64,000 nt of DNA from Escherichia coli (GCF_003334405.1 NZ_QOWM01000008.1), one strand, 5' to 3'. Shown: positions 61,595 to 64,000, numbered from the stretch's first letter. The notes: generated by a model from the sequence alone, not told the origin. Translations and numbers: made by a program.

Positions 61595-62716
61595 ATGAGC
61601 AGACCGGACTGGGCGGCGTTGCAGCAGGAGTATATTGCTGAATACACCCGCTCCGGTATATCTCCGGTGGCATGGTGTGAAGCAAGGGGACTGAATTACG
61701 CAACAGCCCGTCGTTACATCAAAAAAACTCCGAAAAATGCGCAGACAGAAATGTGCAAAACTGCGCAAAAAAGTGCGCAGAAAAAATCTGCGCAGACTGC
61801 ACAAAAGCGGAACGAAAAATCTCAGGAAAAAAAGCCAGTATTCGATGCGGGCCTGAATGAGGGCGACGCGGAGGAATTTTCGTTCTGTCCCGATGAATTC
61901 GGCATTTCTGACCAGCAGGCTAAGTTTGCGATGCTTGTTGCTCAGGGTAAAAAGCCGACAGAGGCGTACCGACTAGCCGGTTATGAGGGGCAAGGTGCGA
62001 CAGCTACCCGGACCATCACGTCGGCAAACATCGACCGTCTGCGCTTTACCTTCGGTGTGCAGGCACTGGTGGAAACCACCTCAAAGGGGGACCGGAATCC
62101 GTCGGAAGTCCGCCTGCTGGTTCAGATACAGCGTAATGGTGGCTGGGTGACGGAAAAAGACATCACCATTAAAGGCAAAACCACCTCACAGTATCTAGCA
62201 TCGGTGGTGGTGGGTAACCTGCCGCCGCGCCCGTTCAATATCCGGATGCGCAGGATGACGCCGGACAGCACCACAGACCAGCTGCAGAACAAAACGCTCT
62301 GGTCGTCATACACCGAAATCATCGATGTGAAACAGTGCTACCCGAACACGGCACTGGTCGGCGTACAGGTGGATTCGGAGCAGTTCGGCAGCCAGCAGGT
62401 GAGCCGTAATTATCATCTGCGCGGGCGTATTCTGCAGGTGCCGTCGAACTATAACCCGCAGACTCGGCAATACAGCGGTATCTGGGACGGAACGTTTAAG
62501 CCAGCATACAGCAATAACATGGCCTGGTGTCTGTGGGATATGCTGACCCATCCACGCTACGGCATGAGGAAACGTCTTGGTGCGGCGGATGTGGACAAAT
62601 GGGCGCTGTATGTCATCGGCCAGTACTGCGACCAGTCAGTGCCGGACGGCTTTGGCGGCACGGAGCCGCGCATCACCTGTAATGCGTACCGATGGTGTTG
62701 TTTATACGATGTATAG
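61595..62716 (+). pseudogene. tmpR: Fusion remnant: unrelated N-terminus joined to an internal fragment of a lambda J-like host-specificity protein
   Basis: C-terminal two-thirds reads KTTSQYLASVVVGNLPPRPFNIRMRRMTPDSTTDQLQNKTLWSSYTEIIDVKQCYPNTALVGVQVDSEQFG...RITCNAY, matching the middle of lambda J; it then shifts frame and stops. Confidence 0.6.
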
Positions 62717-64000
62717 CACACATCAGAAACCGACGCCGTTAGATATTGGAGCACTGCCAACAACCGGAGGAACAGTTTCAGGTCCGTTGTCTGTTACAGG
62801 TGGATTAACTGGTTCATTGAATGGTAATGCAAGTACAGCCACGAAATTGCAGACGGCAAGATCTATCGGTGGAGTTGTTTTCGACGGTTCTGCAAATATT
62901 AACCTTCCAGGTGTAAACACTACGGGTAATCAGAACACCACTGGTAATGCTGCAACTGCTACAAAACTTCAGACTGCAAGAAAAATATCCGGTGTTCCAT
63001 TTGATGGTTCTACTGATATCACTTTAACCGCCGCGCATGTGGCTGCTTTTGCCAGAAGAGCAACGGATGCGTATGCCGATGCGGATGGGGGCGTTCCATG
63101 GAATGCCGAATCAGGCGCTTACAATGTCACCCGCTCTGGCGACAGCTATATTCTGGTTAACTTCTATACCGGAGTCGGAAGTTGCCGGACCTTGCAGATG
63201 AAGGCGCATTACAGAAATGGTGGTCTGTTCTACCGTTCTTCAAGAGACGGTTATGGTTTTGAAAGTGGTTGGGCGCAGCTTTACACCTCGGCTCATCCTC
63301 CTGCAGAGTTTTATCCAGTCGGTGCACCAATCCCGTGGCCATCAGATACCGTTCCGTCTGGTTATGCCCTGATGCAGGGGCAGACTTTTGACAAATCTGC
63401 CTACCCAAAACTTGCAGCCGCTTATCCGTCAGGCGTGATCCCTGATATGCGTGGCTGGACGATTAAGGGCAAACCTGCCAGTGGTCGAGCCGTATTATCT
63501 CAGGAACAGGACGGCATTAAATCGCACACCCACAGCGCCAGCGCATCCAGTACGGATTTGGGGACGAAAAACACATCGTCGTTTGATTACGGAACCAAAT
63601 CCACGAATAACACCGGGGCGCATACCCATAGTATTAGCGGGACTGCAAATAGTGCCGGTGCGCACCAACACAAGAGTTCCGGTGCATTTGGTGGCACGAA
63701 CACGAGCATTTTCCCTAATGGTTATACCGCGATTTCAAATCTAAGCGCGGGGATTATGAGCACAACAAGCGGTAGTGGCCAGACTCGTAATGCAGGGAAG
63801 ACATCATCAGATGGTGCTCATACCCACTCGCTGTCCGGCACTGCTGCAAGCGCAGGCGCACACGCACATACTGTCGGTATTGGTGCTCATACGCACTCCG
63901 TTGCGATTGGCTCACATGGACACACCATCACCGTTAACGCTGCTGGTAACGCGGAAAACACCGTCAAAAACATCGCATTTAACTATATTGTGAGGCTTGC
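62709..64000 (+). pseudogene. stfR: Side-tail-fibre C-terminal fragment (stfR-like), runs off the window end
   Basis: Frame open from 62709 to the window end; tail-fibre repeats (ATKLQTAR...FDGS) and GAHTHS/GAHAHT collar repeats; N-terminal portion missing. Confidence 0.6.

Follow-up and report, generated by a model that had tools for sequence, protein, structure and literature searches.

Fused terS, J and stf fragments as probable remnants of two internal deletions in a Rac-type prophage of Escherichia coli

At the right-hand end of a 64-kb stretch of Escherichia coli DNA (the whole of which is called the window here), an open reading frame of 373 codons at 61595-62716 on the plus strand runs into sequence of the host-specificity gene J, and the C-terminal part of a side tail fibre gene (stf) follows in another frame. 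How did these gene fragments come to be fused, and what can a prophage with such a late region still do? Comparison with related prophages indicates that the region is very probably what is left of the late (morphogenesis) operon in a lambdoid prophage of the Rac family at ttcA, with an ancestor almost identical to the prophage of E. coli PK5074, in which two deletions joined three fragments. It is a case of ordinary prophage decay, a familiar type of change in a well-known element, and does not constitute a new system.

The prophage and its parent type

A Rac-type prophage occupies the window from about 40.4 kb on. Positions 39500-62000 align colinearly, at about 100% identity, to annotated regions of E. 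coli 64EVA, PK5074, and L73. The order of genes there is ttcA, intR, xisR, ralR, recT, recE, kilR, sieB, repressor-region genes, ydaT, replication genes, hok/gef, and antiterminator-region genes, followed by two TolA-like genes, holin, lysozyme, Rz, trkG, a ParB/Srx-N protein, a GREB1/TAGT-like protein, a 69-aa protein, and the small terminase. The features that define the Rac family are thus all present, namely a position adjacent to ttcA, intR/xisR, recET, kilR, sieB, and the cargo gene trkG in the Rac order, and the trkG-ynaK stretch is 99.7% identical to that of K-12 Rac.

Several genes of this left-hand part can be described individually. In this copy of Rac, the recombination module appears intact, with recE present as a full-length ORF of 1023 codons (43515-46586, minus strand) and a RecT-family gene adjoining it at 42451-43503. 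An ORF for a toxin of the Hok/Gef family lies at about 52465-52620, upstream of the antiterminator-region genes. Two TolA-like ORFs (PF06519; 55556-55984 and 56135-56530) are located directly upstream of the holin/lysozyme/Rz cassette (about 56782-57955), which is apparently intact in the window and has been lost from K-12 Rac. Between trkG and terS, at 59688-61404, are genes for YnaK (263 aa, with a ParB/Srx N-terminal domain) and then for a TAGT/GREB1-related glycosyltransferase-like protein (PF20691); K-12 keeps codons 1-85 of ynaK only and does not have the glycosyltransferase-like gene. One possibility is that YnaK and the PF20691 protein act as a DNA-modification pair of the phage.

A parent-like reference for mapping was available in E. 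coli PK5074, which carries a near-complete Rac-type prophage at the same locus of the chromosome. The genes of that prophage are arranged in the order trkG, ynaK, the TAGT-like gene, a hypothetical gene, terS (364 aa), terL (split by an IS3), portal, minor head, DUF6651, a P22-type capsid, head-tail genes, tail tube, ydaY, tape measure, M, L, K, I, J (1159 aa), lom, stf (1092 aa), tfaR, and pinR. When window positions 58000-64000 were compared with this prophage by BLASTN, exactly three colinear pieces were recovered in the same order and orientation: 58000-62006 corresponds to PK5074 up to terS codon 138 (99.95% identity), 62005-62690 to J codons 100-329 (99.85%), and 62687-64000 to stf from codon 653 to its end (99.92%). 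The late region is likewise of the Rac type, the pieces following the PK5074 order terS...J-lom-stf-tfaR, with tfaR next to stf on a public contig that continues the sequence (L008; see below). Among 5,426 complete E. coli genomes, 683 (about 13%) carry an intact 13.9-kb module from portal to I (coverage of 80% or more), and the undeleted parent type is therefore common.

Three fragments and two joints

The first fragment is the 5' part of terS, codons 1-137 of 364, at 61595-62006 on the plus strand, identified by nucleotide and protein alignment and by PHROGs. It sits within the 4,007-nt BLASTN alignment that covers 58000-62006, and 136 of its 137 residues are identical to WP_000089447.1; the sole change is at residue 7, which is A where PK5074 TerS has G. 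The preliminary description of the locus had called this N-terminus unrelated, but it is the terS of the same prophage. The PHROGs family phrog_51 (terminase small subunit) covers residues 1-138 of the chimeric protein (E = 1e-41), and the match to the profile ends at position 122 of 261. A Pfam search of the chimeric protein returned the FNIII-A domain of J and no terS domain, the terS piece being too short or too divergent for Pfam. The C-terminal part of TerS serves in oligomerisation and in the interaction with TerL. With residues 1-137 only of 364, the piece is not a full-length functional small subunit.

At the first joint (62005-62006, plus strand), a three-way alignment, in which the window was set against the two parental sequences, places a 2-bp microhomology, TA, between terS codon 137/138 and J codon 100/101. 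The joint is in frame (61595 + 3 x 137 = 62006), so J codon 101 carries on the terS frame. Relative to PK5074, 17,544 bp are missing here, or about 16.3 kb if the ancestor did not have the IS3 of PK5074, with loss of the 3' part of terS, terL, portal, the head genes, tail tube, tape measure, M, L, K, I, and the 5' end of J.

The second fragment (62005-62690, plus strand) comprises codons 101-328 of the 1159 codons of the tail-tip/host-specificity gene J, including its FNIII-A domain, as assigned by nucleotide identity, Pfam, and PHROGs. It shares 99.85% of its nucleotides with PK5074 gpJ (BLASTN) and 96.5% with positions 15805-16489 of lambda J. At the protein level (BLASTP), residues 1-137 of the chimera match the small terminase subunit, and residues 138-365 match lambda J residues 101-328. 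The preliminary description had recognised an internal J-like segment; its identity as J stands, whereas its position is N-proximal within gpJ (residues 101-328 of 1159) rather than central. Pfam PF24801 (FNIII-A_GpJ) matches residues 134-244 of the chimera (E = 9e-36), and phrog_31 (central tail fiber J) matches residues 136-365 (E = 9e-152). A complete J/TipJ protein has about 1130-1160 aa, with an N-terminal tip-complex part and a C-terminal receptor-binding domain. The FNIII-A region (residues 101-328) is all that remains of it here. Relative to PK5074, the J fragment carries a single non-synonymous change, G to A at 62567, which replaces Gly by Arg at chimera residue 325. The same A also creates a TGA in the stf reading frame and a GAGGA located 6 and 9 nt upstream of the stf-frame codons TTG 62577 and GTG 62580, respectively; these multiple effects of a single change are probably due to chance.

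At the second joint (62687-62690, plus strand), the same three-way alignment reveals a 4-bp microhomology, TACC, between J codon 328/329 and stf codon ~654. The likeness extends to 7 of 8 positions when J GCGTACC is aligned with stf GCGTTACC. This joint is out of frame (+1), and 5,188 bp are missing relative to PK5074, with loss of the remainder of J, lom, and the 5' 60% of stf. The J-derived part of the chimera finishes precisely at ...EPRITCNAY, after which stf DNA is read in the J frame for eight out-of-frame codons (62691-62716, plus strand; RWCCLYDV, its first codon straddling the joint) up to the stop codon TAG at 62714-62716. The preliminary description had given an ORF at 61595-62716 with a J-like part up to RITCNAY, and the same ORF with the same coordinates appears in the ORF list and translation. 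The 373-aa ORF is best regarded as a chimeric pseudogene, made of the TerS N-terminus, the J FNIII-A segment, and eight junk codons, and is presumably a non-functional by-product.

The third fragment, codons ~655-1091 of the 1092 codons of stf (62687-64000, plus strand), was identified by nucleotide identity, BLASTP, PHROGs, and Pfam. It is 99.92% identical to PK5074 stf (BLASTN), with zero amino acid differences over the compared residues, and 84% identical to residues 781-1120 of K-12 StfR. Translation in the stf frame, which is +1 relative to J, gives ~438 C-terminal side-tail-fibre residues, uninterrupted to the end of the window and including the repeats GAHTHS, GAHQHK, and GAHAHT. The fragment matches profile positions 559-794 of 794 in phrog_295 (tail fiber protein), and its called product matches the Pfam Collar domain (PF07484). 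The hallmarks of an Stf C-terminus are thus in place (collar domain, His-x-His repeats of the GAHTHS type, and tfaR downstream), and the N-terminal tail-attachment domain is missing from a fragment that begins at codon ~655 of 1092.

The stf frame is open from 62568 onward. J sequence accidentally supplies it with the possible starts TTG 62577, GTG 62580, and ATG 62589, 62610, and 62682, and ATG 62709 is a native internal Met codon of stf. The preliminary description, which had a second frame with GAHTHS-type repeats opening at about 62709 as a tail-fibre C-terminus, agrees with this native Met and with the translated repeats. Public gene calls differ, one caller starting at 62682 (440 aa) and another at 62709 (431 aa). 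The ribosome-binding sites of the stf-frame starts are all weak or arise accidentally from J sequence, and the frame may be expressed nonetheless. The C-terminal stf fragment has neither a promoter nor its native start codon, and its product is presumably a non-functional by-product as well.

No base has been inserted at either joint, and the J- and stf-derived DNA overlap by 4 bp. Since zero bases lie between them, there is no lom gene or IS between J and stf, and the three-way alignment contains no remnant of either between the fragments, as the preliminary description had also noted. That description had further proposed a frameshift into stf. The change of frame is instead an out-of-frame deletion joint, falling exactly on the 5.2-kb deletion. 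For the same reason, programmed ribosomal frameshifting between J and Stf was rejected, as the frame change coincides with a deletion joint that is absent from every intact relative; the check for a slippery site consisted of a reading of 62650-62730.

Flanks colinear with an undeleted parent, microhomologies of 2 bp (TA) and 4 bp (TACC), and joints with nothing inserted are the characteristics of microhomology deletion, and the TA and TACC overlaps would point to illegitimate recombination or replication slippage as the mechanism. The first deletion would have joined terS codon 137 in frame to J codon 101, and the second J codon 328 out of frame to stf codon ~655. Judging from the sequence of the joints, neither an IS nor homologous recombination appears to have been involved. 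The alignments to lambda J and K-12 Rac suggested in the preliminary description were run, and the breakpoints have been mapped; its view of the fused fragments as deletion scars is borne out by the colinearity of the three pieces with PK5074, the microhomology of 2-4 bp, and the absence of an IS.

A different origin, a mosaic assembled by recombination between different prophages or incoming phages rather than by deletion in situ, could be envisaged, as lambdoid tail-fibre regions do exchange with defective prophages such as Rac (PMC3945230) and the J fragment is 96.5% identical to lambda J. However, all three pieces are 99.85-99.95% identical to one prophage at the same site, in the same order and orientation, and the joints lie inside genes at microhomologies of 2-4 bp, outside shared homologous stretches. 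An inter-phage mosaic is thus very improbable and was rejected on the basis of this colinearity with a single parent.

Deletion in situ leaves the number of events to be considered. The preliminary description spoke of successive deletion scars; the scars are confirmed by the colinearity with PK5074, but their succession is not, as no intermediate with a single junction was found. Neither junction occurs alone in any of the 5,426 complete E. coli genomes, and both are present in all known carriers. Exact look-ups of hypothetical one-junction proteins (J 1-328 followed by RWCCLYDV, and chimera variants with ancestral residues) found none in a collection of 15 billion proteins, in which a single substitution defeats the look-up. 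These results are compatible with one complex event, for example a replication template switch with two jumps. Yet look-ups that demand exact protein identity are weak negatives, intermediates could be unsampled with ~7 carrier contigs known, and other strains show stepwise decay, such as K-12 with two deletions and an IS5. A single complex event therefore has a real but clearly smaller chance than two separate deletions.

Records of 7 contigs contain the 373-aa protein in exactly this form. In all four contigs that were fetched (one NCBI assembly and three Logan assemblies, from different runs), both 61-nt junction sequences are identical and contig-internal. Because both junctions are common to four independently assembled contigs, misassembly is excluded. 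None of the 5,426 complete E. coli genomes has the same arrangement (at least 80% of 61300-64000 covered) or either junction. The allele is genuine, although rare. Just one long public contig carries it, L008 (GCA_024592615.1), which differs from the window by a single base over 12.4 kb. The window stops 4 nt short of the end of the stf stop codon; in L008, stf ends 4 nt past the window, tfaR follows, and the contig ends 27 nt after tfaR (L008 12985-13012), a break that suggests repeated sequence at this position. Complete J and stf genes in an extended sequence had been named beforehand as the finding that would speak against deletion, and the extension provided by L008 adds the end of stf and tfaR, with no complete J or stf.

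An artefact of assembly or frame calling, with complete J and stf genes in the actual genome, might be suspected where J and stf are repeated, as in E. coli genomes with multiple prophages, in which they often break short-read assemblies, and the protein cluster of the chimera is full of partial J fragments from contig ends. However, the 61-nt junctions are identical and internal in four contigs that stem from different samples and different assemblers; one of the junction-bearing loci is about 1.6-2.3 kb away from where a 162-kb contig ends, and the flanks are continuous through both joints. The probability of such an artefact is practically negligible.

Lost genes and possible use of the remnants

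Neither of the two deleted segments has a BLASTN match anywhere in the 64-kb window, and a tblastn search of the window with 23 PK5074 and 19 lambda morphogenesis proteins detected the J and stf fragments only. Relocation of the morphogenesis genes was rejected, as the search of the entire window recovered neither the deleted DNA nor the lost structural proteins. With the 17.5 kb and 5.2 kb went the genes for the large terminase, portal, capsid, tail tube, and tape measure, together with M, L, K, I, most of J, lom, and the N-terminus of stf. Because the missing genes are absent elsewhere in the window, neither heads nor tails can be made from it. By its gene content, the prophage would be unable to package DNA or to build heads and tails, and particle production is presumably lacking. 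The claim of the preliminary description that it cannot make tails is accordingly supported but understated, since the head and terminase genes are also missing. The early region, the lysis cassette, and trkG remain, and the prophage may still be capable of excision, recombination, immunity/exclusion, lysis, and the supply of TrkG.

The chimeric and truncated proteins may be expressed during late transcription. Recombination of K-12 Rac stf/tfa with an incoming lambdoid phage has been shown experimentally (PMC3945230), and, by analogy, the J piece (96.5% identical to lambda J) and the 3' piece of stf are potential recombination substrates for incoming lambdoid phages.

Could the fragments have been kept because they are used? 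The DNA-binding N-terminal piece of TerS might act as a dominant-negative inhibitor of packaging, and the Stf C-terminus with TfaR as a receptor-binding module or recombination reservoir. If both ORFs were expressed by late read-through and used by the host, the TerS-J fusion could hinder the packaging of related superinfecting phages, and the Stf C-terminus with TfaR could block a receptor or donate a host-range cassette; in that case, selection and not chance would account for similar terS-5'/stf-3' remnants in other strains. Both ORFs are open, the first junction is in frame, start codons exist in the stf frame (one of them preceded by GAGGA), strains NCTC9087 and YZ_2_2 likewise keep a terS 5'/stf 3' piece and tfaR, and lambda recombines with the stf/tfa region of Rac (PMC3945230). 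However, at most one residue per fragment differs from the intact genes, and the deletions are too recent for a signal of selection. Breakpoints also vary by strain, with terS missing from K-12 and both stf and tfaR from 64EVA, and nothing is consistently kept. The stf fragment does not have a native start or a promoter, and few carriers of the allele are known (about 7 contigs, against 0 of 5,426 complete genomes). Both the retention of the fragments for a function and their use by the host through late read-through thus appear very improbable, and non-functional by-products of deletion are the favored reading.

Decay across Rac-type prophages

Among the closest relatives are the Rac-type prophages of PK5074, L73, and SE11, which share the locus, the gene order, and 99.85-99.95% identity over every kept segment. 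They differ in retaining the whole terS-to-stf module (in PK5074, interrupted only by the IS3 in terL), of which the window is short by 22.7 kb.

K-12 Rac (trkG-ynaK-ydaY-ynaA/tmpR-lomR::IS5-stfR-tfaR-pinR) belongs to the same family, occupies the same ttcA-adjacent site, and carries trkG, with 99.7% identity over trkG-ynaK. As in the window, internal deletions have wrecked its morphogenesis operon and left fused gene fragments followed by stf and tfaR. The breakpoints, however, are entirely different, consistent with the preliminary remark that the arrangement departs from that of K-12. In K-12, ynaK codon 85 is joined to ydaY codon 3 and tape-measure codon 312 (ynaA/tmpR) to about codon 80 of lom, which carries an IS5; stfR is full length, and there is no terS or J fragment. 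The window, in contrast, keeps the full ynaK, the glycosyltransferase gene, the terS 5' piece, the J piece, the 3' 40% of stf, and the lysis cassette, and has neither lom nor an IS.

The similarity to lambda lies in the J fragment, which equals lambda J residues 101-328 with two residues different (96.5% at the DNA level), in the 3' end of stf, which resembles orf-314, the Stf C-terminus (69% at the amino acid level), and in the ancestral order J-lom-stf-tfa. Lambda differs in having complete J and lom genes, and stf of its laboratory strain is split by a true 1-bp frameshift (orf-401/orf-314), as opposed to a 5.2-kb deletion here. The head and terminase genes of this prophage type (P22-type capsid, phrog_51 TerS) are not lambda-like.

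Four other Rac-type prophages have also lost part of the same module by internal deletion and carry fused fragments. In NCTC9087 and YZ_2_2, a terS 5' piece is joined to the 3' part of stf, as far as terS codon 205 and codon 210, respectively. In ES2, terL codon 99 is joined to J codon 56, with J and lom complete, and in 64EVA, portal codon 304 is followed by an IS5 and then by pinR. Their breakpoints differ from those of the window, and none contains an isolated island of J 101-328. To the right of tfaR, some strains have sitABCD instead of pinR-ynaE.

Every decayed copy examined has its own breakpoints, six decayed Rac-type prophages yielding six breakpoint sets. This pattern points to recurrent, independent erosion of the morphogenesis module of a common prophage type with the flanking cargo kept, and it fits the general description of defective prophages (PMC6379469). 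In annotations, the 373-aa ORF and the 431/440-aa "phage tail protein" are best labelled as pseudogene fragments, and the prophage is best listed as defective in head formation, tail formation, and packaging, with integration, recombination, immunity, lysis, and trkG functions kept. The locus is a worked example of prophage decay and has little importance beyond annotation.
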